Source: an uncultured Candidatus Saccharibacteria bacterium
GTDB lineage: Bacteria; Patescibacteriota; Minisyncoccia; Phycocordibacterales; UBA918
NCBI GenBank assembly: GCA_964593375.1
Contig: CAZQIF010000003.1
Coordinates: 11,210-75,209 of the forward strand
Direction: 5' to 3'
DNA: 64,000 bases
The notes beneath the pieces were generated by a model. The model was not told the DNA's origin and made no database searches. It saw nothing but the letters and a program-made list of their open reading frames with translations. A program made the position numbers and the translations under genes. Positions 2,296 to 47,978 of this stretch are shown one piece after another. Positions within the stretch are counted from its first letter, which is position 1. Each line of letters begins with the position of its first letter.

Positions 2296-2340
2296 CGTGA
2301 CGGACACATAGTATATGTGTCCGTCACAAGATCTTTTTCA
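2296..2340 (+). terminator. hairpin plus T-tract (intrinsic terminator candidate)
   Basis: Perfect 14-bp inverted repeat GTGACGGACACATA/TATGTGTCCGTCAC followed by AAGATCTTTTT, 106 nt after the lipoprotein stop. Confidence 0.45.
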
Positions 2341-2403
2341 AACTTTCGATACTCTCGCGTACAGGGGTGTAGGTGTGAGTATTTAGAAGCAAGAAACATT
2401 AAT

Positions 2404-15735: not shown

Positions 15736-15841
15736 GACAATTACTTTGATCTCTTCTGGTACTCTACGAAGCGTTTGATTATGGCGTCTTCACAAAGCAT
15801 TAGGAAAAGCATTGTGAAGACGGACTCGGAAAATATAATCG
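15736..15841 (-). repeat. intergenic repeat family 1, copy E (hairpin element abutting the nusB-Nudix stop)
   Basis: Reverse complement reads TATATTTTCCGAGTCCGTC, stem GTCTTCACAATGC...GCTTTGTGAAGAC, then GCCATAATCAAACGCTT; collinear with copies A and D. Confidence 0.55.
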
Positions 15842-16078
15842 CTAGCGCTCATTATTTTCCGGCCACGCCTCAGCCTCAGTTCCTCGTGCGCCTCGCATCT
15901 TTCGCAATTCTAGCAATTTTCAAGTATTGCAAGATTGTTTCTACACTTAGTTTCACCTTTTTTATATTCCATAACCTATATTCATTATTCAATATCCCAT
16001 ATCCTATATTCCATATTCAATATCATATATTTTTACCTTTTCATTTTTAATTTTTAAATTTTGTGTTAGTCTAGCGCC

Positions 16079-16789
16079 ATGACCGATATGAGCGACATCG
16101 AACAATCTCTTACAAATCTCCAAAAAAAGCTTGGGGTGACCTTTGTTGACCCTCAGCATCTCCTCACGGCGATTACACACCGTTCCTATTTAAATGAGCA
16201 CCGCGAGGCAAAACAAGACCACAATGAACGTTATGAGTTTTTGGGTGACGCCGTACTTGAACTCGTGGTGACTGATTTCCTTTTTCAAAAATACCCAGAG
16301 AAACCCGAGGGTGAACTCACTGCCGTTCGTGCTGCGCTCGTGAACACTATTTCAATTTCTGAAGCCGGAGTGCGTCTTGGCATCAATGATTTCCTCCTCC
16401 TTTCAAAAGGTGAGGAGCGCGATACGGGACGGGCGCGCCAGTACATTCTCGCAAATGCCTTCGAGGCTATCATCGGAGCAATCTATCTCGATCAGGGATA
16501 CGAATCTGCAAAAAACTTTATTGGCGATGAGCTTTTCGATCTCACCGATACCATTGTTGCAAAGCGCTTGTGGCAAGATGCAAAGAGTCGCTTTCAGGAA
16601 CTTGCGCAAGAGCATACAAATATCACGCCGAGTTACGACATGATAAGTCAGGTTGGCCCCGATCATGACCGTGTCTTCACGGTTGGCGTCTTCTTAGGGA
16701 GTGAAAAAATTGGAGAAGGAAAGGGCCGTTCAAAACAAGAGGCTGAACAAGAGGCAGCCCTGAAAGCAATTGAAGCGAGAAATTGGTGA
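16079..16789 (+). CDS. rnc: ribonuclease III
   Basis: ERYEFLGDAVLELVV signature and dsRBD. Confidence 0.88.
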   Translation: MTDMSDIEQSLTNLQKKLGVTFVDPQHLLTAITHRSYLNEHREAKQDHNERYEFLGDAVLELVVTDFLFQKYPEKPEGELTAVRAALVNTISISEAGVRLGINDFLLLSKGEERDTGRARQYILANAFEAIIGAIYLDQGYESAKNFIGDELFDLTDTIVAKRLWQDAKSRFQELAQEHTNITPSYDMISQVGPDHDRVFTVGVFLGSEKIGEGKGRSKQEAEQEAALKAIEARNW

Positions 16790-16866
16790 CCAGAAATTAA
16801 GGAATGTAATGACTATAATTTCTGAGTCCGTCGACACGTGCTTTCCCTATGCTTCGTGTCGACGCC
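16790..16866 (+). repeat. intergenic repeat family 1, copy A (starts at the base after the rnc stop)
   Basis: CCAGAAATTAAGGAATGTAATGACTATAATTTCTGAGTCCGTC, then stem GTCGACACG...CGTGTCGAC, then GCCGTAGTCAAACGCTT; a partial second copy lies at 16901 to 16934. Confidence 0.6.
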
Positions 16867-16998
16867 GTAGTCAAACGCTTTGTCAGGTAATGATTAGGTG
16901 ATTTCTGAGTCCATGGCCTAGAAGTTAAAGAGCGCAAGCGTAGGCGATTTCACCAGTATAGGGCATCGATGTTTATAGACTCATGGTAAAATACAGCC

Positions 16999-19890: not shown

Positions 19891-19977
19891 TAAAAGCTAA
19901 AAGCAAATCACTAAGAGCTAACTCTTAACTCAGATTTGTGCAAGATACGCGACGTGAGAAGCGAATACGTGGAGCTT

Positions 19978-20075
19978 CGCAAGACCTTGAACAGTTTTTG
20001 TGAAAGGTGTACAGCGTCTGTAAGAGGCGAGACACTAAATGCGAGGCGTACAAATCGTACGATGAGATTTTAGTG
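19978..20075. repeat. intergenic repeat modules G1 (19978 to 20026) and H3 (20043 to 20065)
   Basis: G1 is about 90 percent identical to 25836 to 25883. The 23-mer at 20043 to 20065 is the exact reverse complement of 23162 to 23184. Confidence 0.55.
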
Positions 20076-20110
20076 ACGAAGCGCAACAAAGTAGATTGGA
20101 TAAATCTGAT

Positions 20111-22057
20111 TTAAGAGAGTATCTCAAAGTCGAGTTGTCGTTCCTCCATACTAGCTCGTTTGAGCTTGATACGCACCGCTTGCCCGAGTGAATATATTTT
20201 TCCGGTCTTCTGACCTTTGATGCGATACTTCTTTGCTTCGTGAATGAAGAAGTCGCCTTTGATACTTGAGAGACGCACCATGCCTTCAGACTTTGAATTC
20301 TTTTCTTCAACATAGAGACCCCAGTCAGTGACACCGGTGATGAGTCCATCAAATTCTTCACCAACGCGGTCGCACATAAACTCAACTTGCTTGTATTTAA
20401 TGGAATCGCGCTCGGCAGTGACTGCGGTCATTTCGCGCTCTGAGCACTGCACCGAAAGTTTTTCATACTTGGCAAGTTCTTTTCCTGAAATCACTTGACC
20501 GTCTAGGTATCGGCGGAGCATACGATGTGCCATTAAGTCGGGGTAGCGACGAATTGGCGAGGTAAAGTGTGTATAGAATTTAAACGCAAGACCAAAGTGA
20601 CCGATGTTTTTTGTCGTATAGAGCGCTTTCGCCATTGAGCGAATGGTTGCGGTTTTAATGAGATTTTCTTCGGGTGTTCCTTCAATATCTTTGAGGAGCT
20701 TGTTGATGTCGCGTGCATCAACGGTGCCCTTGTGTGTTTTGAATTCGTGACCGAGTGCGTGGAGGAAGATAGCGAGGTCCTCAATTTTTTCTGGATTCGG
20801 AACATCATGCACACGGTAGATGAACGCTGCGTCGCGATTGTTCTTCTTTGCATGTTCGTACACGTATTCCGCGACGCGGCGGTTTGCGAGGAGCATAAAG
20901 TCTTCAATCATGAGCATAGTCTCGGTGCGCACTTTGGTGTATGCACGGATTGGTTTTCCATCCTTATCGATTTCAAATTTTACTTCCGGTTGGTCAAAGG
21001 CAATTGCACCATCTCGGTATCTCTGTTCGCGAAGCTTTCGGCCAATGTTCATGAGAGTGTTGAGTTCCTCGTACATTGGTCCTTGTTTCGTATCGAGTAC
21101 TTCCTGTGCTTCTTCATAGCTGAATCGCTTGTTTGAGTGAATGATGGTTTGTCCAAACCACGAGTTCAATGTTTTTCCGTTTGTATCCATCTCAAAGACT
21201 GCCGAGAATCCGAGGCGGTCTTCATTAGGGCGAAGAGAACAGAGATCGTTACTGAGTACCTCAGGGAGCATCGGAATCACACGGTCAACGAGATAAATCG
21301 ATGTCCCACGTTCGACAGCTTCTTTGTCGATGGGGTCATTCTCACGAACGTAGTGTGAGACGTCGGCAATATGAATACCAATTTCGAAATTTCCATTTTC
21401 GAGCGTGCGAAGGGAAATGGCATCATCAAAATCTTTTGCATCGACAGGGTCGATGGTGCAGGTGGGAACATCGCGCATATCGCGACGTGTTGGGTTTTGA
21501 CCTTGCGTTGCAATGACAGCGTCTTTAAAAATTTGCTCCTTACGTGCGTACAGTTCTTGTCCCGCCTCAGCAATCTTCTCGGGAAAGTTTTCTGAAAATC
21601 CGCCGCCCCGAATAATCGCCTGCATTTCTGTTTCGTGGTCGCCGGCAGGCCCGAGTACCTCAACAATCTCACCAAGTGGTTCTGAAAGCGGGCTCTTCCA
21701 TTCGGTTATACGCGCCACGACCTTCATTCCTTCGTTAGTCTTTGTTGCGTCAGAAAGAAGTATGCGGATGTGGATTCGACGGTTGTCGGGAATGAGGCGA
21801 TAGATTCCCGCCTTCATTTCAACGTTACCAACAAACTCAGCGTTTTTTGGTTCGACAACGCGGAGCACCTTTCCTTCAATGCGCTTTCCGGGGACTTTCT
21901 TAAAAATCTCAATTTCAACGATATCGCCATCAATGGCAAAGGAGAGCGCCTCAGGTGGAATGAGAATATCTTCTTCATACCCCGGTACAGACACAAAACC
22001 CGTGCCTTTGGCGCGAATCATGATGACTCCTTGAAAAGTTGATTGTTTCTGGTTCAT
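20111..22057 (-). CDS. rnr: ribonuclease R (RNB family exoribonuclease)
   Basis: RNB domain including HFGLAFKFYTHFTSPIRRYPDLMAHR; cold-shock and S1 domains. Confidence 0.88.
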   Translation of the reverse strand: MNQKQSTFQGVIMIRAKGTGFVSVPGYEEDILIPPEALSFAIDGDIVEIEIFKKVPGKRIEGKVLRVVEPKNAEFVGNVEMKAGIYRLIPDNRRIHIRILLSDATKTNEGMKVVARITEWKSPLSEPLGEIVEVLGPAGDHETEMQAIIRGGGFSENFPEKIAEAGQELYARKEQIFKDAVIATQGQNPTRRDMRDVPTCTIDPVDAKDFDDAISLRTLENGNFEIGIHIADVSHYVRENDPIDKEAVERGTSIYLVDRVIPMLPEVLSNDLCSLRPNEDRLGFSAVFEMDTNGKTLNSWFGQTIIHSNKRFSYEEAQEVLDTKQGPMYEELNTLMNIGRKLREQRYRDGAIAFDQPEVKFEIDKDGKPIRAYTKVRTETMLMIEDFMLLANRRVAEYVYEHAKKNNRDAAFIYRVHDVPNPEKIEDLAIFLHALGHEFKTHKGTVDARDINKLLKDIEGTPEENLIKTATIRSMAKALYTTKNIGHFGLAFKFYTHFTSPIRRYPDLMAHRMLRRYLDGQVISGKELAKYEKLSVQCSEREMTAVTAERDSIKYKQVEFMCDRVGEEFDGLITGVTDWGLYVEEKNSKSEGMVRLSSIKGDFFIHEAKKYRIKGQKTGKIYSLGQAVRIKLKRASMEERQLDFEILS

Positions 22058-22170
22058 GTGGTCTCGATAGTATCACAATATATGGGTACAAACCATGCTT
22101 TTTATGCAATCCCCAATATATTAGAGAAAGCTTGACCGAATTGGTGACTTCTGGTACTCTTCACGGCACT

Positions 22171-22617
22171 ATGTTAATGATGCGTTTACAACGAATTGGC
22201 CGAAAAAACGACCCCTCATACCGAGTGGTTGTTGTTGATTCCCGCCAAGGTCCGAAGAGTGGAAAGCACCTTGATCTCCTTGGTACTTTTAGTCCAAAGC
22301 TCAATCGTGTAGTTATTGATGGAGAGCGAGCAAAGAAGTGGATTAAGAACGGAACTCAGGTTTCAGGAACAGTTCACAATCTTCTCATTTCACAAAAGAT
22401 TATTGAGGGTAAGAAAATTAACGTTCTTCCTAAGAAATCTCCCGTTATCGACGAAGCGAAGATAAAGGCGGAAGCAGAGGCGAAGGCTAAAGCAGAAGCG
22501 GCAGAAAAGGCAGCAAAGGAGGCAGAAGCAGCGAAAGCAGCTGAGGCGGTAGTAGAGCCAGAAGTTGAGGCTCCGGTTGCAGAAGTTGCTCCAACCGAGG
22601 AAGCAAAGGCAGAATAA
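22171..22617 (+). CDS. rpsP: 30S ribosomal protein S16 with a Lys/Ala/Glu-rich C-terminal tail
   Basis: RIGRKNDPSYRVVVVDSR...LLGTF; start moved past the end of rnr. Confidence 0.85.
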   Translation: MLMMRLQRIGRKNDPSYRVVVVDSRQGPKSGKHLDLLGTFSPKLNRVVIDGERAKKWIKNGTQVSGTVHNLLISQKIIEGKKINVLPKKSPVIDEAKIKAEAEAKAKAEAAEKAAKEAEAAKAAEAVVEPEVEAPVAEVAPTEEAKAE

Positions 22618-22630
22618 TTTGAATTTCAAA

Positions 22631-22670
22631 ACAACACGCGCTTGGGGCAGAGCCCCAAGCGCGTGTTGAC
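22631..22670. other. long perfect stem-loop 15 nt after rpsP
   Basis: AACACGCGCTTGGGGC aga GCCCCAAGCGCGTGTT; A-tract on the 5' side and no U-tract on the 3' side on the plus strand. Confidence 0.35.
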
Positions 22671-22758
22671 GTATTGGTTCAAACTGTTACCATTCTATGA
22701 GCACGTTTCGGAAAGGATGAAACGGCAGTTATCAGATTAGTTCTCTAATATAATTCGT

Positions 22759-23115
22759 ATGGAATTAGACCAGCAGTTTCTCGAGCAGCTTGTAACAGCG
22801 CTTGTAGACCATCCAGAATCAGTGAAGATTAACCGAACGGTAGACGAGATGGGCGTACTCCTTACACTCGATGTACATGCTGCAGATATGGGCAAAATCA
22901 TCGGTCGTTCAGGAAACACCGCAAAGGCGATTCGTACACTGCTCCGCGTTGTTGGAATGAAGAACGAAGCTCGTGTAAATCTTAAGATTAACGAACCAGA
23001 AGGAGGAACTCGTTCAGCAGCATCAGCAGATGCAAGCTCAGATGTGACGAGTGTTGATGAGACTCCGGATGCTCCAAAATCACTGGACGAAGCTATCGAC
23101 GGTTTGCGCATATAA
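22759..23115 (+). CDS. KH-domain RNA-binding protein (YlqC-like)
   Basis: GKIIGRSGNTAKAIRTLL KH motif; conserved position after rpsP. Confidence 0.7.
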   Translation: MELDQQFLEQLVTALVDHPESVKINRTVDEMGVLLTLDVHAADMGKIIGRSGNTAKAIRTLLRVVGMKNEARVNLKINEPEGGTRSAASADASSDVTSVDETPDAPKSLDEAIDGLRI

Positions 23116-23130
23116 ATTGTACTGTCGGCG

Positions 23131-23215
23131 AATTTCTTTGTCAGGACGGCAAAAATAATTTTCATCGTACGATTTGTACGCCTCAAACTATTTCCTTGTC
23201 CTTCCTCGAACTTCG
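23131..23215 (+). repeat. intergenic repeat family 3, copy H1 (15 nt after the KH-protein stop)
   Basis: Collinear and about 70 percent identical with 33044 to 33127; contains TCATCGTACGATTTGTACGCCTC. Confidence 0.55.
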
Positions 23216-23257
23216 CCCGACATTCCAATTTCTATGCAGCAAACAAGTTGAAAATAA

Positions 23258-23295
23258 AACAAACACAAAACCCCGCCGGCTGCGCCGCGGGGTTT
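23258..23295 (+). terminator. intrinsic terminator
   Basis: AAAACCCCGCcggctgcgccGCGGGGTTTTGTG. Confidence 0.5.
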
Positions 23296-23312
23296 TGTGA
23301 TATCATCTCCAC

Positions 23313-23753
23313 ATGGAAAAGGGAAAGGACTATATTGGCATTGCAATATGTTTCTATTGTCATGATGGACAGGGGAACTTCGTTTTAAATAAACGCAATC
23401 AAAATTGTCGTGACGAACATGGACGTTGGGATTTTGGCGGTGGTGGGCTTAAATTTGGAGAAACTTTTCAGGAATGTTTGGCAAGAGAAGTCAAAGAAGA
23501 ATATGGAACTGAGATAGTAAAATGTGAGTTCATCGGATTTGACGAGGTTTTCAGGAATCAAGATGGGGTTGAGACACATTGGGTAGATATCCGATACAAA
23601 GTGCAGCTCGATAGAAATAAAGTTATTAATGCTGAGCCACATAAACACGATGAAATTGGATGGTTTACCTTAGACAATCTTCCGTCCCCACTTCATTCTC
23701 AGTTGCCACACGAGCTCATAAGGTACCGTTCAATTCTGGAAACAATTGGTTGA
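23313..23753 (+). CDS. Nudix hydrolase
   Basis: Perfect Nudix box GGLKFGETFQECLAREVKEEYG. Confidence 0.75.
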   Translation: MEKGKDYIGIAICFYCHDGQGNFVLNKRNQNCRDEHGRWDFGGGGLKFGETFQECLAREVKEEYGTEIVKCEFIGFDEVFRNQDGVETHWVDIRYKVQLDRNKVINAEPHKHDEIGWFTLDNLPSPLHSQLPHELIRYRSILETIG

Positions 23754-23903
23754 AGGAAATATAAATTCGTGCAACACTAAAGTTTCAATATAAAGCACCA
23801 GATACGCGAAGTGACTGAACGAGAACGTGAGGCGTATATACATACGATGAATGTTTGAGTGAGGGAAACGACAAAGTAGATGGTGCTTTAGATTGGGACT
23901 TTT

Positions 23904-24596
23904 ATGAAATTCCACATAATTACACTCTTCCCTGAAATCTGTCAGACATACACGGATGCCTCGGTTCTTGGTCGTGCCCAGAAGACAGAGAAGGGAAAGG
24001 GAGCAAAGCAAAAGGGAAAGCAGATTGAGGTGAAATACTACAATCCCCGAACCTTCACGACTGATAAGCATCACAAGACCGATGACCGACCATATGGTGG
24101 TGGGCCTGGCATGGTGATGTACGCACTTCCGATTGTGAAAGCGGTTGAAAAAGCTCTTGGCAAAAAAGACCGAAAGAAAGTTAAGGTACTTATTATGTCG
24201 CCACGTGGAAAGAAATTTGATCAGGTGATGGCGAAAAAATTTGCAAAGAATTATACCAACCTCGTGCTCATCTCCGGTCGATACGAAGGTATCGATAGTC
24301 GAGCGAAAAAGATTTTGCGCGCTGAAGAAGTTTCAACAGGGGAGTACGTGCTTACGGGGGGCGAACTTCCTGCGCTCACGATTGTCGACGCGGTCTCACG
24401 AAATATTCCCGGCGTCCTTGGTACCTTTGAATCCCTTGAAGACGAGCGAGTCTCAACGGGGGAAATGTACACACGCCCAGAATCATTTGAATATAAGAAG
24501 AAGAACTACAAAGTACCGAAGGTCCTTATGGGGGGAAACCATAAGGAGATTGAGGAATGGAAGAAAAGTAAGGAAACTCAATCTGCTCTCAAGTAA
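23904..24596 (+). CDS. trmD: tRNA (guanine37-N1)-methyltransferase
   Basis: SPOUT/TrmD motifs (RYEGIDSRA, GEYVLTGGELPALTIVDAVSR) with a Lys-rich insertion. Confidence 0.88.
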   Translation: MKFHIITLFPEICQTYTDASVLGRAQKTEKGKGAKQKGKQIEVKYYNPRTFTTDKHHKTDDRPYGGGPGMVMYALPIVKAVEKALGKKDRKKVKVLIMSPRGKKFDQVMAKKFAKNYTNLVLISGRYEGIDSRAKKILRAEEVSTGEYVLTGGELPALTIVDAVSRNIPGVLGTFESLEDERVSTGEMYTRPESFEYKKKNYKVPKVLMGGNHKEIEEWKKSKETQSALK

Positions 24597-24613
24597 TTGG
24601 TATCATTCTGCAT

Positions 24614-25561
24614 ATGGAAGAATTTCGAATCAACAACGAGAGCAAAAATGAAACACAAGAAGCATTGCTCAGAGAAAAGTTTGATGAACAATTTTCTCAT
24701 TTCGAAACAATTCCATGGGGGGAGTCGAGTATAGAAGTGATTGACCTTACCCCAGATGAAATTACCGAAGCGGTCCCCGTGTTATTTGTGCCTGGTTTTG
24801 GAAAAACACCACGTTCTTATAAAGAGGCGCTGTTTGAGATATACAAATCGGGTCGACGAGTACTTTCTTTGACTGCACCCACAGATAAGGTTGAACTCAC
24901 TAGAGAAGAAAAGAAAAATATTCCGACTGCACAAGCAGAACGTGCATATGCAATACTTCATGTGCTTCAAGAGAAGCGTGTTGGAGAAGTTGACGTCGTG
25001 AGTCACTCCGAAGGTGGAATGAATGCAACCATTGCGGCATCATTGGCACCTGAACTGTTTCGACATTTTGTTTTTGTTGCTATACCGGGAGTCACAGGTA
25101 CACAATCATTTCTCGAAATTGCTAAACGCGGAATCCAGAATCAAATGCAGATTAATCAAGAGATGAGTGAAGCGGACAGAGAAGCAAAAGAACGCTACGA
25201 ACGTTCGAATAACGATATTAAATCTTGGGTGAAGGAACGGGGTATGCTCAAAGGAGCTATTGAAGCAACAAATCCTGGGAGATATGAAATTAGTGATGAA
25301 GTCAGAAAACTCCACAATTCAGGACACGGCATCAGTATTATTTCGGGAGTCGAAGACAAGATGCTTCCTATGGAGGAATATCAAAGAGATGAGACAGGCA
25401 CGCCGAGAAGTGCAGACGACCTGGGTGTCGATGGATTTTATTCCATTAAGAAGGGTCATGGGGAACTGGAAGTGAATGAAAAAGTGGGAATGCTCGCTAT
25501 CCATGCGATTGAGGCTCTCGCACAGAAATACTCCCAAAAAGACAATACCTCTGCGGTGTAA
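24614..25561 (+). CDS. alpha/beta-hydrolase fold protein
   Basis: VSHSEGG nucleophile elbow (GxSxG type). Confidence 0.5.
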   Translation: MEEFRINNESKNETQEALLREKFDEQFSHFETIPWGESSIEVIDLTPDEITEAVPVLFVPGFGKTPRSYKEALFEIYKSGRRVLSLTAPTDKVELTREEKKNIPTAQAERAYAILHVLQEKRVGEVDVVSHSEGGMNATIAASLAPELFRHFVFVAIPGVTGTQSFLEIAKRGIQNQMQINQEMSEADREAKERYERSNNDIKSWVKERGMLKGAIEATNPGRYEISDEVRKLHNSGHGISIISGVEDKMLPMEEYQRDETGTPRSADDLGVDGFYSIKKGHGELEVNEKVGMLAIHAIEALAQKYSQKDNTSAV

Positions 25562-25604
25562 TGGTTTTAGGGTAAAATATCCATGAAATACCACAGGTAA
25601 GCCA

Positions 25605-25633
25605 TTGACTTCTTTTCCTAACTCTGTTAGACT
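25605..25633 (+). promoter_or_regulatory. sigma70-like promoter candidate (TTGACT, 17 nt, TAGACT)
   Basis: Read directly; lies at the start of the 570-bp non-coding region upstream of rpoB. Confidence 0.3.
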
Positions 25634-25835
25634 CCTCGCCATACGCTATTCGGTCTCGAATGAGTTTCGGTTGTGAGATTTTCATACGCGGAGAATAAAG
25701 AGACAGTCTTTGTCTCGAGCACACAAACGTGATGCACCAATTACAAGCCGAGTAAAAAGGGTGTACGAACTGTACGCGCACTGAGCGCGGATTTTGGCGT
25801 GAAGTTAAAGAGTGAGTTGCGAGGAATCGCAGCAA

Positions 25836-25883
25836 CGCAAGACCTTGAGCAGTTTCTGCGAAAGGTGTACAGCATCTGTAAGA
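25836..25883 (+). repeat. intergenic repeat module G2
   Basis: GCAAGACCTTGAGCAGTTTCTGCGAAAGGTGTACAGCATCTGTAAGA, about 90 percent identical to 19978 to 20026; preceded by GAAGTTAAAGAG, which is shared with 16921. Confidence 0.55.
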
Positions 25884-25891
25884 TGTAGCGA

Positions 25892-25943
25892 CTATAACTT
25901 CAGGTCTGTCACCTTTTCTTTTTCGTTAAAGAAAAGGTGACGC
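25892..25943 (+). repeat. intergenic repeat family 1, copy F
   Basis: CTATAACTTCAGGTCTGTC, then stem GTCACCTTTTCTTT...AAAGAAAAGGTGAC, then GCG. Confidence 0.55.
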
Positions 25944-26131
25944 GTGTTCCTTTTTTCTACTCACATTATTCACAAGGGTGAATGTACACGGCATACACCC
26001 ATGAGAGTTGAGGGGTATTAATAATCTGCATAGTGATTTTAGAGTTAGTTCGTCTTTTCAAAGCATTAGGAACAGCAATGAAAAGACGGCCAAGATTCTC
26101 TAATTCGCTACGCTCATAACAGAATCTAGGC

Positions 26132-29100
26132 ATGACTCACAACACACGAAAAGACAGAGAGATTTCTGTTGGCATGCTTCCAAAGAAGCACTTCCAGCAC
26201 TATCGTGATGCGCGCGTATCACTTCCTGACCTCGTCCAGCCACAGCGAGAATCATTCAAGTGGTTTGTTGAAACCGGTCTCAAAGAAGTATTCAAAGAGT
26301 TTTCACCAATTGGTGACTATTCTGAAAAGAAGTTTGAACTCGTTTTCAAGAAGTATGAACTGGGGAATCCAAAGACGACTCCTCAGTACGCAAAGGAAAA
26401 CAAGCTCACCTACGAAGCGCCACTTCGCGCGCAAGTAGTATTGCGCAACAAGACGTTTGCAGGAGAGAAAGAACAGGAAATCTTCATGGCAGACATTCCA
26501 GTCATGACTGAAAACGGAACCTTCATTGTGAACGGTGTTGAGCGCGTTATTGTGCCACAGCTCGCACGCTCATACGGAATCTTTTTCACTACAAGTGAAA
26601 CCAAGGGGCGAACCTACTTTGGTGCGAAGATAATTCCAGCGCGTGGTGCGTGGGTTGAAATTGAATCTGAAGCCGATGGTGCCATCTACGTAAAGATTGA
26701 CCGAAAGCGAAAGTTCCCGGTCTCATCACTGTTCCGTGTACTTGGTGCAAAAGATGAAAAAGCGGTCGCAGCGCTCTTCAAGGGAGTTCCATTTGCTGAG
26801 GAATTTCTTAAGGCAACATTCCTTAAAGATCCTGCAAAGACTGTTGATGACTCATACATCGAAATTTATCGTCGCCTCCGCGATGGTGACCTTGCGACCG
26901 TAGAAAACGCGCGCGAGTTTGTGAACTCAATCTTTGCTCCTGAGCGATACGACCTTTCAGAAATTGGACGACATCATTTTAACCAACGTTTCGGACTTCC
27001 TGTTGATGCGAAAGCGACTGCAGTCCGCACCGTCGGTCTAGAAGACATTGTGACGATTCTCAAAAACATCATCACGCAGAATCACACCCCCGGAGCAATT
27101 GCTGACGATATCGACCACCTCGGTTTCCGTCGTGTGCGCTACTTTGGAGAACTTCTCCAACAGCGTATCCGTGTTGGTATGACTCGTGTCAAGCGAAACG
27201 TACAAGACCGTATGTCAACGATTGAAGCTGAGACATCACTTCCAATTCAACTCGTGAACCCACGTCCACTTCAAGCAGCGATTAAGGAATTTTTCACCAC
27301 CAACCAGCTTTCACAGTTCATGCCACAGCAGAACATGCTCGCAGAACTCGAAGGTCTCCGTACGCTCTCAGCACTCGGTCCGGGTGGACTCACTCGTGAG
27401 CGCGCTGGCTTTGAGGTGCGTGACGTACACACGAGTCACTACGGCCGACTCTGTCCGATTCACACACCTGAAGGTCCAAACATTGGTCTCATTCTCCGTC
27501 TCTCAATGTACGCTCGCGTAAACCGATTCGGTATCATCGAGACACCATATGCAAAGGTGCATAAAGGAATCGTGACTGACGAGATTGTGTACCTTAATGC
27601 CCATGAAGAAGAGCACTACAACATCGCACACGCTGCGGTAGAAGTTGATGAAAAGGGAAAGATTAAGTCAGAAAACGTTGAGGCTCGCTACAATGGTGAC
27701 CCACGTGTTGTTCTCCCAAATGAAGTTGACTTCATCGACATTGCAACCAATCAGGCATTCTCTGTTGCAACCTCAATGATTCCATTCATTAACCACGACG
27801 ACGCCAACCGCGCACTCATGGGTTCAAATATGCAGAAGCAGGCTACGCCTTGTATCGTGCCTGAAGCACCACTCGTCGCAACGGGCGTTGAGGAAATGGC
27901 TGCTAGGGACACCGGACGCATGATTGTTGCGCATGAAGCAGGAGAAGTTATTGAAGCTGATGCAAAGCATGTCGTCCTCAAAGACAAAGACGGAAAGAAG
28001 CATGAATATGCACTCACGACATTCCAGCGCACCAACGACTTCTCTGCGTTCTACCACCGCACATCAGTTACGGTTGGCGATAAGGTAAAGCGTGGCGACG
28101 TACTCGCAAACACCTCTTCAACCGAAGCGGGTCAAATCGCACTTGGACAAAACGCACTCGTTGCCTTCATGAGTTGGAGCGGTGCAAACTATGAGGACGC
28201 CATCATTATTTCTGAGCGTCTCGTAAAGGATAGTAAGTTTGCAACGATTCACCTCGATGAACTCGAAGTGGCAGTTCGCGACACCAAGCTTGGGCCTGAA
28301 GTTACTACCCCAGACATTCCAAACGTTTCAGAGCAAAAGCTTCGCAACCTCGATGAAGAAGGAATCATTCGCGTTGGTGCAGAAGTGCGCCCAGGCGATA
28401 TTCTTGTCGGTAAAGTTACACCAAAGGGAGAGACACAGCTCACTCCTGAGGAACGACTTCTCCGTTCAATCTTCGGTGAGAAGGCAAAGGATGTGAAGGA
28501 CACTTCACTTCGTCTCGAAGCAGGAAAGCGCGGTCGCATTATCGGCGTGAAAGTATTCTCACGCGAGCAGGGTGACCAACTCGAATCGGGTGTCATCAAG
28601 CGCATTCACATTACCGTTGCACAGGTTCGTAACGTATCAGTGGGTGATAAGCTCGCAGGACGACACGGAAACAAGGGTGTTATCTCACGTATTCTTCCTG
28701 AGGAAGATATGCCGTACACAGAAGATGGAAAGCCGGTTGATGTGATTCTCACACCGCTCGGCGTTCCAAGCCGTATGAACCTCGGACAGATTCTTGAACT
28801 TCACCTTGGTATGGCGGCAAATACACTCGGCTACCAAGCAATCGTTCCTCCATTTGCAGGAGCATCAGAAACTGATGTGAAGGCAGAACTCGCGGCAGCA
28901 GGTTTGCCAACCGATGGAAAGATTCCACTTCGCGATGGACGAACCGGTGAAGCATTCGCACAGCGCATCTCAGTCGGGTACATGTACATTCTTAAACTTC
29001 ATCACATGGTTGAAGACAAGATTCACATGCGCTCAATTGGGCCGTACTCCCTCATTACGCAACAGCCACTCGGCGGAAAGGCACAGGTGGGAGGACAGCG

Positions 29101-29341
29101 ATTTGGAGAAATGGAAGTCTGGGCGCTTCTCGGATACGGTGCTGCATACACGCTCCGTGAAATGCTCACGATTAAGTCAGACGATATTGTTGGTCGTTCA
29201 GCCGCTTTTGACGCCATTGTGCGTGGAGAGCGTATTAGTCACCCACATACACCTGCAGCGTTTAACGTGCTCGTCAATCAACTCCGCGGTCTTTCACTCG
29301 ATGTTGATTTGAAGCGAGAAGGTGGTGTCGATAGAAATTAA
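26132..29341 (+). CDS. rpoB: DNA-directed RNA polymerase subunit beta
   Basis: Full-length RpoB conserved blocks (for example GRHGNKGVISRI and MEVWALLGYGAAYTL). Confidence 0.95.
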   Translation: MTHNTRKDREISVGMLPKKHFQHYRDARVSLPDLVQPQRESFKWFVETGLKEVFKEFSPIGDYSEKKFELVFKKYELGNPKTTPQYAKENKLTYEAPLRAQVVLRNKTFAGEKEQEIFMADIPVMTENGTFIVNGVERVIVPQLARSYGIFFTTSETKGRTYFGAKIIPARGAWVEIESEADGAIYVKIDRKRKFPVSSLFRVLGAKDEKAVAALFKGVPFAEEFLKATFLKDPAKTVDDSYIEIYRRLRDGDLATVENAREFVNSIFAPERYDLSEIGRHHFNQRFGLPVDAKATAVRTVGLEDIVTILKNIITQNHTPGAIADDIDHLGFRRVRYFGELLQQRIRVGMTRVKRNVQDRMSTIEAETSLPIQLVNPRPLQAAIKEFFTTNQLSQFMPQQNMLAELEGLRTLSALGPGGLTRERAGFEVRDVHTSHYGRLCPIHTPEGPNIGLILRLSMYARVNRFGIIETPYAKVHKGIVTDEIVYLNAHEEEHYNIAHAAVEVDEKGKIKSENVEARYNGDPRVVLPNEVDFIDIATNQAFSVATSMIPFINHDDANRALMGSNMQKQATPCIVPEAPLVATGVEEMAARDTGRMIVAHEAGEVIEADAKHVVLKDKDGKKHEYALTTFQRTNDFSAFYHRTSVTVGDKVKRGDVLANTSSTEAGQIALGQNALVAFMSWSGANYEDAIIISERLVKDSKFATIHLDELEVAVRDTKLGPEVTTPDIPNVSEQKLRNLDEEGIIRVGAEVRPGDILVGKVTPKGETQLTPEERLLRSIFGEKAKDVKDTSLRLEAGKRGRIIGVKVFSREQGDQLESGVIKRIHITVAQVRNVSVGDKLAGRHGNKGVISRILPEEDMPYTEDGKPVDVILTPLGVPSRMNLGQILELHLGMAANTLGYQAIVPPFAGASETDVKAELAAAGLPTDGKIPLRDGRTGEAFAQRISVGYMYILKLHHMVEDKIHMRSIGPYSLITQQPLGGKAQVGGQRFGEMEVWALLGYGAAYTLREMLTIKSDDIVGRSAAFDAIVRGERISHPHTPAAFNVLVNQLRGLSLDVDLKREGGVDRN

Positions 29342-29357
29342 TTAATAGTCACTAACT

Positions 29358-32300
29358 TTGTATAACAATATGAGAAATCAAGCACCACAATTGTTCAGCG
29401 AAGTGAGCCTCAAGCTCGCATCTCCTGAGCGAATCCTCGAATGGTCAAAGGGTGAAGTCACAAAGCCAGAGACTATTAACTACCGCACACAGCGTCCTGA
29501 AAAGCACGGTCTCTTTGATGAAAGGATATTCGGTCCGGTTGAGGACTACGAGTGTTCTTGCAAGAAGTATCGTGGCATCCGCTACAAGGGAATTACCTGT
29601 GAGAAGTGTGGTGTTGAAATCACCCGCTCAATCGTACGACGCGAACGCATGGGGCACATTGAGCTCTGCGTGCCCGTCTCACACATTTGGTTCCTTCGTG
29701 GTGTTCCATCACGTATTGCGCTTATTTTAGGAACATCAGCAGCGTCAATTGAAAAAGTTGTGTACTTCGCAGGATACATCGTCACGAAAGTGAGTGAAGA
29801 AGAACGAACTCGACTCCTTCGCGAGCTTGATACTGAATACAAGACGAAGCACAAGGAACTCACGAGCGACCTCGCACGTGAAGAACTCAAGAATCGCATG
29901 GAAGAGATGAAGAAGGAGATTCAGGGTATTACCCAAGGAGCTATCCTTGACGAGATGCACTTCCACAAATTCTCAATGAAGTACAGCGTACTCTTTGAGG
30001 CAGAGATTGGTGCTGAGGCAATATTTCAACTCTTCAAGAAGCTTGACCTTGTCTTGCTCCGCGAGCGACTCGAAAAGGAGCGCGAGACTGCGGGCGCTGC
30101 AGAGCGTACCAAGCTCGACAAGCGACTTTCACTCATTCGCGGCATGATTCATGCGGGCGTCAGGCCTGAGTGGATGTTCCTCACCCGTATTCCGGTTATC
30201 CCACCAGCGCTTCGTCCTATGGTTGCGCTCGAAGGAGGACGTCATGCGTCATCAGACCTTAACGACCTCTATAGGCGTGTTATTAACCGAAACAATCGCT
30301 TGAAGAAACTCATCGACATCATGGCGCCAGACGTTATTCTTCGTAACGAAAAGCGTATTCTTCAAGAAGCGGTAGACGCACTCATCGACAACTCAATTCG
30401 TCACGGCAACACTGCATACTCAGCAATGAGTCAGGCACAGCGCCGACCACTTAAGTCACTCGCCGATTACCTCAAGAGCAAGCAAGGTTATTTCCGTCAG
30501 AACTTGCTCGGTAAGCGCGTCGACTATTCAGGACGTTCGGTGATTGTTATTGGACCAGACCTCGCACTCGACCAGTGTGGTCTGCCAAAGCACATGGCAC
30601 TTGAGCTTTTCCGCCCATTCGTCATTTCAGAACTCTTAAAGCAAGAACTTGCATACAACATTCGTGGTGCAGGACGCTTGATTGAAGACGGAGTGCCAGA
30701 AGTCTGGGCAATTCTTGAAAATGTGATTCGTGATCGACACGTACTTCTTAACCGCGCACCGACACTGCACCGTCAGGGTATTCAGGCGTTCCGCCCAGTG
30801 CTCATTGAAGGTAACGCGATTCAGGTTCACCCACTCGTTTGTCGTGCGTTCAACGCCGACTTCGACGGAGACCAGATGGCGGTACACGTACCACTTTCAG
30901 TGGAGGCACAGCTCGAAGCACGAGAAATTATTTCTGCAAACAAGAACATCCTAAAGCCTGGATCTGCTGAACCAGTCGTTTCTGAAAAACTTCTCGATAT
31001 GGCACTTGGTGCATTCTGGATGACCAAGATTGTCGAAAATGCAAAAGGTGAAGGAAAGTTCTTCCAGTCACCAAACGCTGCGATTCTCGCCTTTGACTTC
31101 GGTGTTATCGACATTCGCGCAAAGGTAAAGGTACTCGCAACGAGTACACCGAAATACGCGCAGTTTGAAGAAAAACTTTTTGAGACAACGGTTGGACGAC
31201 TCCTCTTCAACTCAGTACTTCCAAGCGAACACCCATTCATTAACGATGTGATTACTCAGCGCGCACTCTTTGGCATCGTCGTTGATATTATTGACGATGA
31301 AGGAATTGGTGCGGTGCCAAAGATTGTTGACCGCATGAAGCGATTCGGATTCGAGTACGCGACAAAGTCAGGAACGACATGGGGAATTGACGACGTGGTC
31401 GTGCCAGAAGAAAAGAAAGGCATAATCGCAAAGGCACGCGCATCAGAAAAAACGATTCTCGAACATTTCGACGAAGGTCTCCTCTCACGAGAAGAACGAC
31501 GACGCCTCATCATTGGTATTTGGCACAAGGCGAAGACCGAGATTGAGGAAATCCTCCCAAGTACACTCGACAAGAACGGCTCAGTCTACGATATGTGGAA
31601 GTCTGGCGCCCGCGGTTCTATGGGACAGATTGCACAGATGGCCGGTATGAAGGGTCTCATCATCAACACAAGGGGGGAGACACTCGAGTTCCCAATTCTT
31701 TCATCAATGAAGGAAGGTATGAGCCCGATTGAATACTTCATTACGACACACGGTTCACGAAAAGGTCTCGCCGACACCGCGCTTCAAACCGCGAAGGCTG
31801 GATACCTCACTCGTCGTCTCTTTGTGGTTGCCCAAGACGCAATCGTGACTGAAGATAACTGTAAGACAAAGGAGGGTGTGACGATTGGTCGCACGAGTTC
31901 TTCAGGAATTCAGATTGCATTCAGTAAGGCGACACGTGGTCGTATTCTCGCTGAAGATGCAGTACTCCCTGACGGGACTGTACTTTTCAAGAAAGGACAC
32001 CTCCTTTCACGACTCGATTCACTTACTGTCGAAGAAAGTAAGGTTGAATCAGTTGTCGTGCGTTCACCGATGACCTGTAAGACACTCCAAGGAGTATGTC
32101 AGCAGTGTTACGGAATCGACCTCACGACAAACAAACTCGTTGATATTGGAGAGGCGGTAGGAACCGTTGCCGCACAGGCGATTGGTGAACCAGGAACACA
32201 GCTCACCATGAACACGAAGCACGCCGGAGGAGCTGCGTCAGTCGGTGGAGACGTGACCCAGGGTCTCCCTCGCGTTGAAGAAGTATTCGAAAAGCGTCTT

Positions 32301-33023
32301 CCCAAGATTCCTGCAATTATTTCGCACACCGATGGTGTCGTCACTGACATTCGTACTGAAGGACGCGAAAAGATTATTGTGGTTGCACCAACACTCGGCT
32401 CTAAGTACGCAACAAAGAAGAACGACAACATTGAGTACCCAGTACACTTCCGTCGCGTCGTGGCGGTCATTGTTGGGGAGGCAGTAAAGCAGGGACAATT
32501 CCTCACGGATGGTTCTGCAAGTCTTCCTGAACTCTTCAAGTACGCAGGCGAGCAAGCAACACAGGAATACATCATTAACGAAACAAACAAGATTTACGAA
32601 CTCCAGGGTGTGACGATTTCACGCAAGCACATTGAGCTCATCGTAAAGCAGATGCTTTCACGCGTGAAGATTACGAACAGTGGGGACAGTCACTTCACGA
32701 CAGGGGATGTTGTCGAGGAATGGAACTTTGTTCGCATCAACAACGAAATCAAGGAGAAGGGAGGAGAGCCAGCAAAGGCTGACAAGCTTATTCTCGGAAT
32801 CACTGAGACCTCACTCTCACGAAAGAGTTTTCTCTCAGCAGCTTCATTCCAAAACACCACACGCGTTCTCATCAACGCAGCGGTGCGCGGAAGTGAAGAC
32901 AAGCTCACCGGACTCATGGAGAACGTCATTATTGGTCGACTCATTCCTGCAGGAACGGGCTTCAAGGGAAGTAAGAAGTTTGATTTGATTCAGACTGTGG
33001 CAGAGAAAGACGGCGACGAGTAA
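29358..33023 (+). CDS. rpoC: DNA-directed RNA polymerase subunit beta prime
   Basis: Zinc-binding CxC...CxxC and NADFDGD catalytic motif. Confidence 0.95.
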   Translation: MYNNMRNQAPQLFSEVSLKLASPERILEWSKGEVTKPETINYRTQRPEKHGLFDERIFGPVEDYECSCKKYRGIRYKGITCEKCGVEITRSIVRRERMGHIELCVPVSHIWFLRGVPSRIALILGTSAASIEKVVYFAGYIVTKVSEEERTRLLRELDTEYKTKHKELTSDLAREELKNRMEEMKKEIQGITQGAILDEMHFHKFSMKYSVLFEAEIGAEAIFQLFKKLDLVLLRERLEKERETAGAAERTKLDKRLSLIRGMIHAGVRPEWMFLTRIPVIPPALRPMVALEGGRHASSDLNDLYRRVINRNNRLKKLIDIMAPDVILRNEKRILQEAVDALIDNSIRHGNTAYSAMSQAQRRPLKSLADYLKSKQGYFRQNLLGKRVDYSGRSVIVIGPDLALDQCGLPKHMALELFRPFVISELLKQELAYNIRGAGRLIEDGVPEVWAILENVIRDRHVLLNRAPTLHRQGIQAFRPVLIEGNAIQVHPLVCRAFNADFDGDQMAVHVPLSVEAQLEAREIISANKNILKPGSAEPVVSEKLLDMALGAFWMTKIVENAKGEGKFFQSPNAAILAFDFGVIDIRAKVKVLATSTPKYAQFEEKLFETTVGRLLFNSVLPSEHPFINDVITQRALFGIVVDIIDDEGIGAVPKIVDRMKRFGFEYATKSGTTWGIDDVVVPEEKKGIIAKARASEKTILEHFDEGLLSREERRRLIIGIWHKAKTEIEEILPSTLDKNGSVYDMWKSGARGSMGQIAQMAGMKGLIINTRGETLEFPILSSMKEGMSPIEYFITTHGSRKGLADTALQTAKAGYLTRRLFVVAQDAIVTEDNCKTKEGVTIGRTSSSGIQIAFSKATRGRILAEDAVLPDGTVLFKKGHLLSRLDSLTVEESKVESVVVRSPMTCKTLQGVCQQCYGIDLTTNKLVDIGEAVGTVAAQAIGEPGTQLTMNTKHAGGAASVGGDVTQGLPRVEEVFEKRLPKIPAIISHTDGVVTDIRTEGREKIIVVAPTLGSKYATKKNDNIEYPVHFRRVVAVIVGEAVKQGQFLTDGSASLPELFKYAGEQATQEYIINETNKIYELQGVTISRKHIELIVKQMLSRVKITNSGDSHFTTGDVVEEWNFVRINNEIKEKGGEPAKADKLILGITETSLSRKSFLSAASFQNTTRVLINAAVRGSEDKLTGLMENVIIGRLIPAGTGFKGSKKFDLIQTVAEKDGDE

Positions 33024-33043
33024 TAGAACTTACGGAAACAGCG

Positions 33044-33127
33044 CATTTCTTTGTCGCACATCACAAAATAATTCTCATCGTATATCTTTATACGCCTCGA
33101 ATTATTTTGTTTGTGCTTCTCGAACTG
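33044..33127 (+). repeat. intergenic repeat family 3, copy H2 (about 20 nt after the rpoC stop)
   Basis: Collinear with H1: ATTTCTTTGTC...AAAATAATTCTCATCGTATA...TACGCCTCGAAT...TTCTCGAACT. Confidence 0.55.
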
Positions 33128-33203
33128 CATCTGTGTCCGTAAGTTCTAGAGTGACGAGGTCTGGAACATTTTGAGACAAGTTTAGGATGTGGTAAATGAA
33201 AAC

Positions 33204-33246
33204 AAACAACTGCCGGATGCCTTTGGCATCCGGCAGTTGTTTCGTC
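33204..33246 (+). terminator. strong intrinsic terminator after rpoC
   Basis: AACAACTGCCGGATGCC ttt GGCATCCGGCAGTTGTT then TCG; a perfect TATAAT at 33300 to 33305 follows, upstream of dnaG. Confidence 0.6.
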
Positions 33247-33314
33247 TCGCGACAAAATTCCACTAACGTCAACACCTCACCCTAAGCACAAAAATCCCGT
33301 ATAATACACGCATT

Positions 33315-36613: not shown

Positions 36614-36673
36614 AAACAGCCCACTTACAAATTGATTCTATCTTGGCACGACGCTTTGCGTTGGGGTTTTCGC

Positions 36674-36717
36674 GTATATCACAGCTTTGTTGTCGAACGA
36701 CAACAAAGCTGTGATAT
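36674..36717. promoter_or_regulatory. perfect 21-bp-arm palindrome (operator or hairpin candidate)
   Basis: TATATCACAGCTTTGTTGTCG aa CGACAACAAAGCTGTGATATA, 20 nt upstream of the regulator start. Confidence 0.5.
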
Positions 36718-36736
36718 ATTTAAAGTACACTTCTGT

Positions 36737-37324
36737 ATGAGTAATTTTTCTTCTAAAAAATTCAATCATATCGATTTACTCCGCAAACAATCGCGTTCAT
36801 ATCGAGTACTGCAGGAGATTTCAGCAGGCGATATGTTTGTTGGATTTCTTCTTTCTGCTCGGAGTACCAAACTTATGTACCAAGTTGCGCGACGACGCGC
36901 TCAAGAGCGATATCAAAACAAGAAAACAATTTTGGAGCTTAAGGCATCGGGATATGTGACCGAAAGGGAGGTCTCGGGTCAACCATCATTTTTCATTACC
37001 AAAGCGGGAAAACAGGCTTTGCGGGAAGTGTATCGAAAAGCGCATGCTCAGCACACAAAACCGGCCTCATGGGATGGTTTATGGCGAGTGGTTTCGTATG
37101 ATTTCCCTGAAGGTGAAAGGAGTGTTCGTAACTCTCTGCGGTATGTGCTTGAAAAAGCTCAGTTTTTGCAAATTCAAAAAAGCGTTTGGCTTTCGCCGTT
37201 TGACTCACAAGAACTTGAAAAGGTAATTGCGAGTCATACAGTGGCCAAAAATCATGTTGTCGTAATGGTTGTTCGCTCTATTTCTGAAGAAGAACGATAC
37301 AAGAAGCATTTTCGACTCAAGTAA
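36737..37324 (+). CDS. PaaX-like transcriptional regulator (start uncertain; the ORF is open back to 36632)
   Basis: C-terminal WDGLWRVVSYDFPEGERSVRNSLRYVLEKAQFLQIQKSVWLSP resembles the PaaX C-terminal WDGxW region. Low confidence because the call is by recollection only. Confidence 0.45.
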   Translation: MSNFSSKKFNHIDLLRKQSRSYRVLQEISAGDMFVGFLLSARSTKLMYQVARRRAQERYQNKKTILELKASGYVTEREVSGQPSFFITKAGKQALREVYRKAHAQHTKPASWDGLWRVVSYDFPEGERSVRNSLRYVLEKAQFLQIQKSVWLSPFDSQELEKVIASHTVAKNHVVVMVVRSISEEERYKKHFRLK

Positions 37325-37338
37325 TACCATCCACAACG

Positions 37339-37380
37339 GTATCACGCCTTTGTTGTCGTTCGACAACAAAGGCGTGATAC
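37339..37380. promoter_or_regulatory. second perfect palindrome, near-identical to 36674 to 36717
   Basis: GTATCACGCCTTTGTTGTCG tt CGACAACAAAGGCGTGATAC; differs from the first at two positions, mirrored in both arms. Confidence 0.5.
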
Positions 37381-45624: not shown

Positions 45625-45687
45625 GCTTGCTTAGAATGCTTAGATTTTATTAATGATTGTAATGAATTTAGAAAATCTTAGCTGTGG

Positions 45688-45772
45688 CCAGAAATTAAGG
45701 AATGAAATGACTATAATTTCTGAGTCTGTCGATTTTTCTTCTTCATTGAAGAAAAATCGACCATACCCTTTC
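45688..45772 (+). repeat. intergenic repeat family 1, copy C
   Basis: CCAGAAATTAAGGAATGAAATGACTATAATTTCTGAGTCTGTC, then stem GTCGATTTTTCTTC...GAAGAAAAATCGAC; 47 of 50 nt identical to copy A in the 5' part. Confidence 0.6.
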
Positions 45773-46702: not shown

Positions 46703-46727
46703 CCCGAAAATAATGAGCCGAAGGCGA

Positions 46728-46800
46728 CTATATTTTCGGAGTCCGTCGACACAATGCTTTTCGTAATGCTTTGTGTCGACGCCCTACTCAAACATCCGAT
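46728..46800 (+). repeat. intergenic repeat family 1, copy D (25 nt after the uppP stop)
   Basis: CTATATTTTCGGAGTCCGTC, then stem GTCGACACAATGC...GCTTTGTGTCGAC, then GCCCTACTCAAACA. Confidence 0.55.
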
Positions 46801-46899
46801 TTAGAAATAAGCACGTCAAAGCAAGCTCATTCCTCGAACTTTGCTCAGCCAAATGCTTTTTAGTTCTGAATATTTAAATTTGCTATTTGAATAGGGAAG

Positions 46900-47907: not shown

Positions 47908-47978
47908 AAAACTTTCACAATTGGTTAATTTCTTTGTTAAAACGGCAAGTTTTTCTTCACCGTACGTCCATGTACGGC

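Follow-up and report, generated by a model that had tools for sequence, protein, structure and literature searches.

A putative miniature inverted-repeat element family of Patescibacteria with hairpin copies at the stop codons of core genes

We analysed the intergenic repeats of a 64,000-nt stretch of DNA from an uncultured Candidatus Saccharibacteria bacterium (contig CAZQIF010000003.1, positions 11,210 to 75,209), the whole of which is referred to here as the window. With a probability of roughly 0.7, these repeats belong, as copies, variants or fragments, to a single family of miniature inverted-repeat transposable elements (MITEs) that is widespread in Patescibacteria. The basic element is 116-127 bp long and self-complementary almost throughout, and in the window it takes the form of an imperfect hairpin of ~125 nt. 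An original prediction, made from the letters of the window, had described two interlocking modules of 48 and about 85 nt and had likened them to composite repetitive extragenic palindromic (REP/BIME) elements or to a family of modular small RNAs. Its general picture of interspersed, modular, palindromic intergenic repeats built of nested pieces is borne out, and bacterial repetitive palindromic elements are indeed the nearest known kind. The two specific labels are not, given that copies measure 116-127 nt, or ~217 nt where an internal module is present, end in terminal inverted repeats, lie between 5-bp target-site duplications, carry no promoter of their own and belong to no Rfam family.

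Results

Anatomy and fold of the element

The outer stem of the hairpin is the terminal inverted repeat, which reads TAGAACTTACGG…CCGTAAGTTCTA in the window copy that follows rpoC and CA(G/T)GACTTACGCG…CGCGTAAGTCATG in the Kaiserbacteria metagenome-assembled genome (MAG) SKGH01; a further example of an element end is CAKGACTTACGCG…. Within it lies a conserved internal loop, in which CTTTGT faces GCCTCGAA, together with inner stems of variable sequence, a conserved 4x4 loop and then a tip of the form TCAYCGTAY-loop-RTACGSCTC. The 23-mer at 23162-23184 that had been reported as the exact reverse complement of 20043-20065, and as the link between the two modules, is exactly that, and it corresponds to the hairpin tip, CGTAC-loop-GTACG; the wider arms, 20043-20070 and 23157-23184, are 93% complementary over 28 nt. 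The rpoC copy has a compensated change at the same place, CGTATA…TATACG. What had been called an 85-nt post-stop module is likewise a genuine repeat, the collinear stretches 23128-23212 and 33041-33126 being 78% identical over 88 nt, but it is merely the central part of the ~125-nt hairpin.

In an alignment of 66 non-redundant copies, drawn from the window and the fetched loci (L002-L118), compensatory changes occur in 32 of the 36 predicted stem pairs, the outer stem is paired, and the loop sequences and tip are near-invariant. Predicted folding energies of three window copies are -53.3 kcal/mol (33024-33148, z -10.8), -31 kcal/mol (23113-23233, z -5.2) and, for 47906-48032, -50 kcal/mol (plus strand) or -55 kcal/mol (minus strand), with z ~-10.5. 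Inspection of the copies that follow the KH-protein gene and rpoC revealed no conserved open reading frame (ORF). At the KH site of several loci (L137, L138, L140, L153, L157 and L162) an alternative tip, CTCSCTGGAC-loop-GTCCCRSTCG, replaces CTCACCGTAC-loop-GTACGGCTCG on unchanged arms, which suggests a lineage-specific change in whatever reads the tip.

Evidence for transposition

SKGH01 harbours many near-identical copies of the element, often at contig ends, with pattern matches on more than 20 contigs. Exact, AT-rich direct repeats of 5 bp flank 13 of its 17 complete copies and a 6-bp repeat flanks one more, compared with 3 of 272 mismatched flank pairs that served as a control. The duplications surround both the 116-127-nt form and a ~217-nt form that contains an internal module of ~100 nt. 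Terminal inverted repeats, a target duplication of fixed length, small size and high copy number together lead us to class the element as a MITE. On sequence evidence, the intact duplications of this one genome, the site of a recent burst, demonstrate transposition by a 5-bp staggered cut into AT-rich DNA. A TA duplication, as would arise from insertion in the TA of a stop codon, was also considered and is unsupported, since the 3'-terminal TA is followed by A or G in no more than 9 of 19 cases.

Copies also decay into fragments, and tandem arrays exist. Head-to-tail arrays with a period of ~131 nt were seen at L082 (33-292) and L086 (1-231), in a MAG of 65% GC labelled Bacillota. Among distant pairs of SKGH01 ends, a 1.4-kb pair in L093 proved to be two half-elements around host membrane-protein genes. 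A ~90-nt insert in L003 (1186-1275) has SKGH01-like ends (CATGACTTACGCG…AGTCATG) and an unrelated interior, and one transposition machinery may move several kinds of short element.

Distribution of the family

A combined pattern, CTTTGT-N18-22-TCAYCGTAY-N5-7-RTACGSC, matched four times in the window and not once in 100 shuffles, so its matches there exceed chance. In species-representative public genomes it matched at least 117 stretches, nearly all of them in Patescibacteria MAGs, and almost all of these matches fold the same hairpin. Host labels among the matches listed include Kaiserbacteria, Paceibacteria, Campbellbacteria (the complete genome CP011215), Nomurabacteria, Azambacteria and others; a few contigs among them are labelled Nitrospira, Smithella or Bacillota. 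A Nitrospira contig of 519 kb (L052) and a Smithella contig (L095) carry copies of the element, and such copies could reflect either spread beyond Patescibacteria or mis-binning. A covariance model of the element, R1, recognised six copies in the window. Over the 775 kb made up of the window and the fetched loci it found 115, and over 692 kb from syntenic relatives 52.

Searches elsewhere were negative. Viral contigs gave four pattern matches, of which R1 confirmed none, and no match to the pattern of the internal module; blastn against plasmids and phages gave no match; and blastn at word size 11 with the rpoC copy found nothing in 5,426 genomes of E. coli. Full-text literature searches found no description of the element.

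Copies and fragments in the window

The matches reported in the original prediction exist, but the covariance model raises the number of copies from three to six, the overlooked ones lying at 47902-48047, 23763-23907 and 50880-51024. The copies and fragments are as follows.

33024-33148, plus strand: complete copy of 125 nt (R1 118.7 bits, E 3e-27; model span 33019-33164)
23113-23233, plus strand: complete copy, which folds (R1 102 bits; model span 23106-23249)
47906-48032, plus strand: complete copy, which folds (R1 102.9 bits; model span 47902-48047)
23763-23907, minus strand: diverged complete copy (R1 79 bits, E 3.6e-17)
50880-51024, minus strand: diverged copy (R1 64.9 bits, E 1.3e-13)
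20024-20110, minus strand: partial copy with 5' arm, inner stem and tip (partial R1 match at 20024-20090, model positions 32-102, 41 bits)
19945-20026, minus strand: accessory module 2, copy 1, containing the 48-nt module first described (P1 covariation; same composite in L005 and L009)
25803-25884, minus strand: second copy of accessory module 2, within the long spacer that precedes rpoB
46826-46850, plus strand: solo fragment like the 3' arm (…CATTCCTCGAACTTTGCTCAG…), downstream of BacA and by eye resembling 23198-23222
16921-16934, minus strand: short remnant (CGCTCTTTAACTTC), a weak match of 14 nt only

The rpoC copy follows directly on the rpoC stop codon (33021-33023), and the terminator of that gene lies beyond it at 33204-33242. 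Its flanks read GAGTAA before and GAGTGA after the element, a match at five of six positions that includes the stop codon, and they may be a decayed target duplication that contained it. In the copy at 23113-23233 the stop codon of the KhpA-like KH protein (23113-23115) lies in the base of the hairpin, whose stem extends to ~23096-23251 and thus ~14 nt into the coding sequence, with a terminator at ~23270-23296. The copy at 47906-48032 occupies the interval between HisRS and the start codon of an RNase H-like gene (47907, minus strand), antisense to both genes; the last 17 codons and the stop codon of HisRS (48031-47979, minus strand) fall inside it, and the insertion seems to have replaced or extended the HisRS C-terminus.

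Of the two diverged copies, the one at 23763-23907 fills the spacer between the NUDIX and TrmD genes, with its CTTTGT strand antisense to the genes and one end over the TrmD start codon (23904); it folds at -45.3 kcal/mol on the plus and -25.3 on the minus strand. The other, at 50880-51024, lies in the divergent spacer between a methyltransferase gene (50125-50904, minus strand) and a gene that starts at 51059 on the plus strand, and folds at -50 (plus) and -36.9 kcal/mol (minus). The partial copy has its start at the stop codon of RNase R (20111-20113, minus strand) and contains both the shared 23-mer at 20043-20065 and a match to the combined pattern at 20045-20091 on the minus strand. Copies in the window, which take either orientation, occur in two settings, namely the gap from a stop codon to the terminator of the same gene and the spacers that separate cistrons.

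The accessory module

The 48-nt repeat is equally real, the quoted 47-mers from 19978-20026 and 25836-25883 differing at four positions (~91% identity by our own count), and the similarity around them reaches 19954-20025 and 25812-25883, with 81% identity over 72 nt. It is, however, part of a separate accessory piece of ~75-100 nt, here module 2, which is sensible on the minus strand. Read in that direction, module 2 consists of CTTACAG-nnn-CTGTMCAC, a hairpin P1, GTCTTGC, a second hairpin P2 and CTCAC; copy 1 (19945-20026) begins CTTACAG-nnn-CTGTACAC. P1 covaries among nine sequences (CCUUU/AAGG, UCAUUGG/CAAUGA and CAUG/CAUG), and besides the two window copies the module occurs at no fewer than seven other loci (L005, L009, L017, L037, L094, L131 and L158).

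Two related MAGs are informative here. L009 and L073 carry the element at the same site with 98 of the first 99 nt identical, and L009 equals L073 plus 101 nt of module 2, placed within the 3' strand of the conserved loop, between GCCCG and CTCGTATC. Module 2 thus represents a discrete insertion or deletion within the element, which accounts for the interlocking appearance of the repeats. At the RNase R site of the window, copy 1 replaces the normal 3' arm, giving a composite of 19945-20110. Copy 2 is followed by a decayed remnant of the 3' arm (CTCTTTAACTTCAC, 25798-25814) and preceded by an unrelated hairpin (25908-25941). The remnant at 16921-16934 is the same decayed 3'-arm variant as 25801-25814, in keeping with the earlier report that GAAGTTAAAGAGYG occurs at 16921 and 25801, where the chance expectation is 0. 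A second site for TTCCTCGAACT beyond that at 23202 had also been reported; it exists, although at 46830 rather than 46829.

Sites, orientation and stop codons

The genes of the window include those for RNase III, an SMC-like protein, RNase R, S16, the KH protein, a NUDIX protein, TrmD, rpoB, rpoC, dnaG, rpoD and HisRS, and the nearest relatives of the window proteins are found in Kaiserbacteria and Paceibacteria MAGs. For comparison we used 80 metagenomic loci that encode a TrmD relative (52-79% identity). The original prediction had raised the comparison of module positions with gene order in related genomes. In these loci the order NusB, RNase III, pilin, SMC, RNase R (opposite strand), S16, KH, (NUDIX), TrmD, rpoB, rpoC, dnaG is kept, and occupancy of the sites differs between relatives. 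The site after KH is filled in ~35 loci and empty in ~17, the site after rpoC is filled in six and empty in most, and elsewhere the element is found after RNase R (three loci), NusB (two) and TrmD (one). The C-terminus of the encoded protein is alike at filled and empty sites; that of KH reads …DDLKI* or …GLRI* in either state. Where the KH site is filled in relatives, the element sets in at the stop codon, and the terminator of the gene comes further downstream; canonical terminators also follow the KH and rpoC copies of the window.

Of the 52 copies that R1 found in the relatives' loci, 48 lie on the gene strand. The SKGH01 burst gives a ratio of 13:8 for orientation to the neighbouring gene and a distance from stop codon to CTTTGT of 32-179 nt, which places the element 7-150 nt from the stop; for all other genomes the ratio is 61:16 and the distance falls at 20-29 nt in 43 of 61 cases. 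As 20-29 nt is the length of the outer arm, the first bases of the element abut the stop codon or are the stop codon. Of 31 anchored cases, 15 have the whole stop codon base-paired to the distal end of the hairpin, with 11 of these pairing on into the coding sequence, and three of the four copies at the S7 site pair with TGG-TAA.

Constraint on persistent copies

The KH-site copy of the window shares 86% identity with its counterpart in L189 and 90% with the one in L129. In protein-guided codon alignments of KH, TrmD, rpoB and rpoC from the same genomes, by contrast, identity at four-fold degenerate sites is just 34-43%. The copy at this site therefore evolves far more slowly than neutral sites, and at least one copy of the family is evidently under strong constraint. 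By our own reading, a third-position change from CGC to CGT in the KH gene between the window and L189 is matched by a change from G to A in its partner in the distal arm. The L144 copy at the KH site is only 58% identical, an indication that turnover or conversion occurs there as well. Two copies of one MAG, L035 and L089, have cores identical at 98 of 99 positions and outer stems that differ, again by our own reading, at four compensated pairs, a pattern that fits conversion between copies.

Other features of the window

No part of the window matches an Rfam family at gathering thresholds, and no tRNA or tmRNA genes were found in it; a permissive search of 33000-33260 returned weak matches only, far under each family's gathering score. 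A second, unrelated repeat family, termed family 1 in the original prediction, occurs at 15773-15865, 16786-16883, 26051-26117, 45684-45732 and 46700-46795. Its units are ~95 nt long, partly self-complementary and situated just upstream or downstream of genes, some with a GACTATAAT-like motif, and they may represent another MITE or a shared promoter or leader. Near-perfect palindromes of ~42-44 nt at 36675-36718 and 37339-37380 (TATATCACAGCTTTGTTGTCG and CGACAACAAAGCTGTGATATA) flank a PaaX_M/Cas2-like gene (36632-37324) and look like candidate operator sites for that regulator; a perfect AT-rich palindrome of 42 nt is present at 59259-59300. The window further contains an ORF of 1414 aa with tandem domain repeats of 240 nt (2191-6435) and a NusB-NUDIX fusion gene (14839-15735).

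Discussion

The closest known systems are the hairpin MITEs, namely Correia elements of Neisseria, ERIC/IRU of enterobacteria, RUP of Streptococcus pneumoniae and Nezha of cyanobacteria. Like these, the element is ~100-160 bp long, non-coding, largely self-complementary and multicopy, lies in intergenic DNA beside genes with which it would be co-transcribed, and shows target-site duplication and filled/empty polymorphism. It shares no sequence similarity with them, as judged by the searches of plasmids, phages and the ERIC-bearing E. coli genomes, and differs in its Patescibacteria hosts, in loops that are conserved phylum-wide between variable stems, in old copies that end on a stop codon and in its nested modules. 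Correia, ERIC and RUP duplicate TA, unlike the 5-bp duplication seen here. The ERIC consensus is ~127 bp long and is carried by E. coli.

The element is not a REP/BIME, small-RNA gene, terminator, attC site or Rfam family. A REP/BIME or REPIN mobilised by a RAYT (IS200/IS605-like) transposase would account for palindromic intergenic repeats near gene 3' ends that combine as mosaics, and the better folding of one strand recalls the handling of single-stranded DNA. REP units, however, are 20-40 nt long, are not accompanied by target duplication and depend on a RAYT transposase, whereas the present unit is 116-127 nt, has terminal inverted repeats, lacks a conserved GTAG head and is flanked by 5-bp duplications, which RAYT/IS200-type transposition does not make; no recurrent neighbouring gene was found in the 117 loci and no RAYT gene was seen in these partial genomes, and we regard this origin as highly improbable. 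Scarcely more credible, and still very improbable, is that the copies are independent small-RNA genes or unusually long bidirectional intrinsic terminators. The great stability of the hairpins and the short runs of A and of U found at either end of many copies speak for such a role, yet there is neither a conserved promoter nor a proper U-tract, copies sit behind a stop codon and ahead of a separate canonical terminator, others lie between divergent start codons or inside the end of an ORF, and Rfam offers no match. Integron attC sites offer a further parallel, being imperfect palindromes, comparable in size, that begin at the upstream stop codon or overlap it, with structure conserved above sequence and one strand favoured in folding. 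Here, in contrast, the conserved sequence is internal rather than basal, inspection reveals no RYYYAAC or GTTRRRY (R and L) boxes, the ends read TAR-AAC…GTT-YTA with no purine run, the neighbours are housekeeping genes (rpoC, S7, KH, NusB), targets are duplicated and no integrase is nearby, all of which makes an attC-like recombination site the most remote of the explanations considered. A likeness of the reverse-complemented tip (GAGCCGUAC…GUACGGUGA) to domain 5 of group II introns was rejected for want of an upper helix, bulge or AGC triad pairing, and K-turn, SRP-like and bridge-RNA readings misfit the loop geometry or context.

More serious are two explanations that differ from ours in what they make of mobility and function. 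The element might never have been mobile, and instead be a host family of cis-acting structured RNAs in 3' untranslated regions (UTRs) and between cistrons that acts as a processing, stability or termination signal. Strong covariation, loops conserved across many lineages, the fixed position at the stop codon, the orientation bias, the constraint at the KH site and the pairing into coding sequence would all follow. We consider it improbable nonetheless, in view of the 5-bp duplications round near-identical copies at unrelated sites, the random orientation and variable stop distance of the SKGH01 burst, the filled and empty orthologous sites, and the tandem arrays and fragments; the better-folding strand, moreover, is usually not the mRNA strand, and covariation is also expected of the two inverted-repeat ends of a transposon. 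At the other extreme, a purely selfish MITE, for which stop-codon position and orientation bias reflect nothing more than insertion tolerance in a compact genome, is in accord with the evidence for transposition, the decayed fragments and the lack of a consistent absolute orientation among the six window copies. It appears unlikely, given that the KH-site copy remains 86-90% identical where synonymous sites are near saturation, that streamlined genomes retain the element at the same site across relatives at 64-78% TrmD identity, and that a change in the stem is compensated together with a codon position.

Several points weigh against the interpretation that we favour, a MITE family of which some persistent copies have been co-opted as mRNA hairpins. 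Clean target duplications are shown in one genome only, SKGH01; a scan for 5-bp duplications around copies outside it found 4 of 101, against 1-2 in controls, and the best flank match of any window copy is the 5/6 of GAGTAA and GAGTGA at rpoC. The fetched loci yielded neither an autonomous element nor a transposase bounded by matching ends, and when 813 ORFs from the 117 loci were clustered, the recurrent families were those of EF-G, S7, S12, a pilin-like protein, LeuRS, RNase J and the like, with no transposase among them. Loops conserved across a phylum are unusual for a MITE, and the RNA role is one that we infer from sequence comparisons. Strand preference is a further difficulty. It is the reverse complement of the CTTTGT strand that folds more stably, whichever way the neighbouring genes run: RNA parameters favour it in 64 of 66 copies, with a mean advantage of 11.7 kcal/mol, and DNA parameters in 66 of 66. 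Isolated transition mismatches in the stems, read on the CTTTGT strand, are A·C in 37 cases against G·T in 13; divided by orientation to genes, the counts are 42:8 and 6:0. Which strand folds better therefore depends on the element rather than on transcription, and as a rule that strand is not the one in the mRNA, which does not fit simple selection as an mRNA hairpin. On the better-folding strand the conserved loops are purine-rich, with tandem G·A pairs and with GAGG and GGUGA resembling Shine-Dalgarno motifs. The active form could alternatively be single-stranded DNA or an element-specific transcript, although propagation through either would be unexpected for an element that makes 5-bp duplications.

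We tentatively propose the following course for a MITE whose copies are in part retained. Fresh insertions would land in AT-rich DNA near gene ends in either orientation, and those that survive in compact genomes would be the ones that spare the ORF and are oriented so that one particular strand enters the mRNA. Copies persisting between a stop codon and the terminator would be co-transcribed into the 3' UTR or intercistronic RNA as a hairpin of ~55 bp. Its likeliest role would be as a barrier to 3' exonucleases and/or as a substrate for double-strand-specific (RNase III-type) processing that sets the end of the mRNA after the stop codon; alternatively, some other sequence-specific host factor might bind the conserved loops. 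Genes for RNase III, RNase R and RNase J are present. Co-option of some persistent copies as mRNA hairpins is a possibility that we place somewhat short of even odds. There are precedents among other palindromes: Correia hairpins are cut by RNase III, the effects of ERIC on mRNA depend on orientation, and REPs stabilise upstream mRNA and, within ~15 nt of a stop codon, lower translation by ribosome stalling. The RNase III hairpins of T7 early mRNA offer a purely functional analogy, being long, interrupted by internal loops and placed between cistrons or after the last gene, where they define and protect mRNA 3' ends, the role proposed here. The T7 sites, unlike the present element, are not repeated mobile DNA, and the two are unrelated in sequence.

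A bolder version of this idea, which we hold to be doubtful, is a co-opted signal that operates across the phylum, in which the base of the ~55-bp hairpin would sequester the stop codon and a conserved Patescibacteria factor would read the two loops and the tip, thereby setting mRNA 3' ends or coupling termination to mRNA fate. That factor could be an RNase III-type protein or another RNA- or DNA-binding protein, and the signal, if real, would act in organisms with few regulators.

Patescibacteria genomes are among the smallest and most compact known, and yet the window carries about one 125-bp copy per 10 kb. Should its true range match what the scan suggests, the family would be a major and apparently undescribed component of these genomes, for the annotation of which the R1 covariance model can be used. 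It would probably also break MAG assemblies, since many copies lie at contig ends, and it would provide a useful marker of insertion polymorphism as well as a natural experiment in the fixation of mobile hairpins at the stop codons of core genes such as rpoC, S7, KH and NusB.

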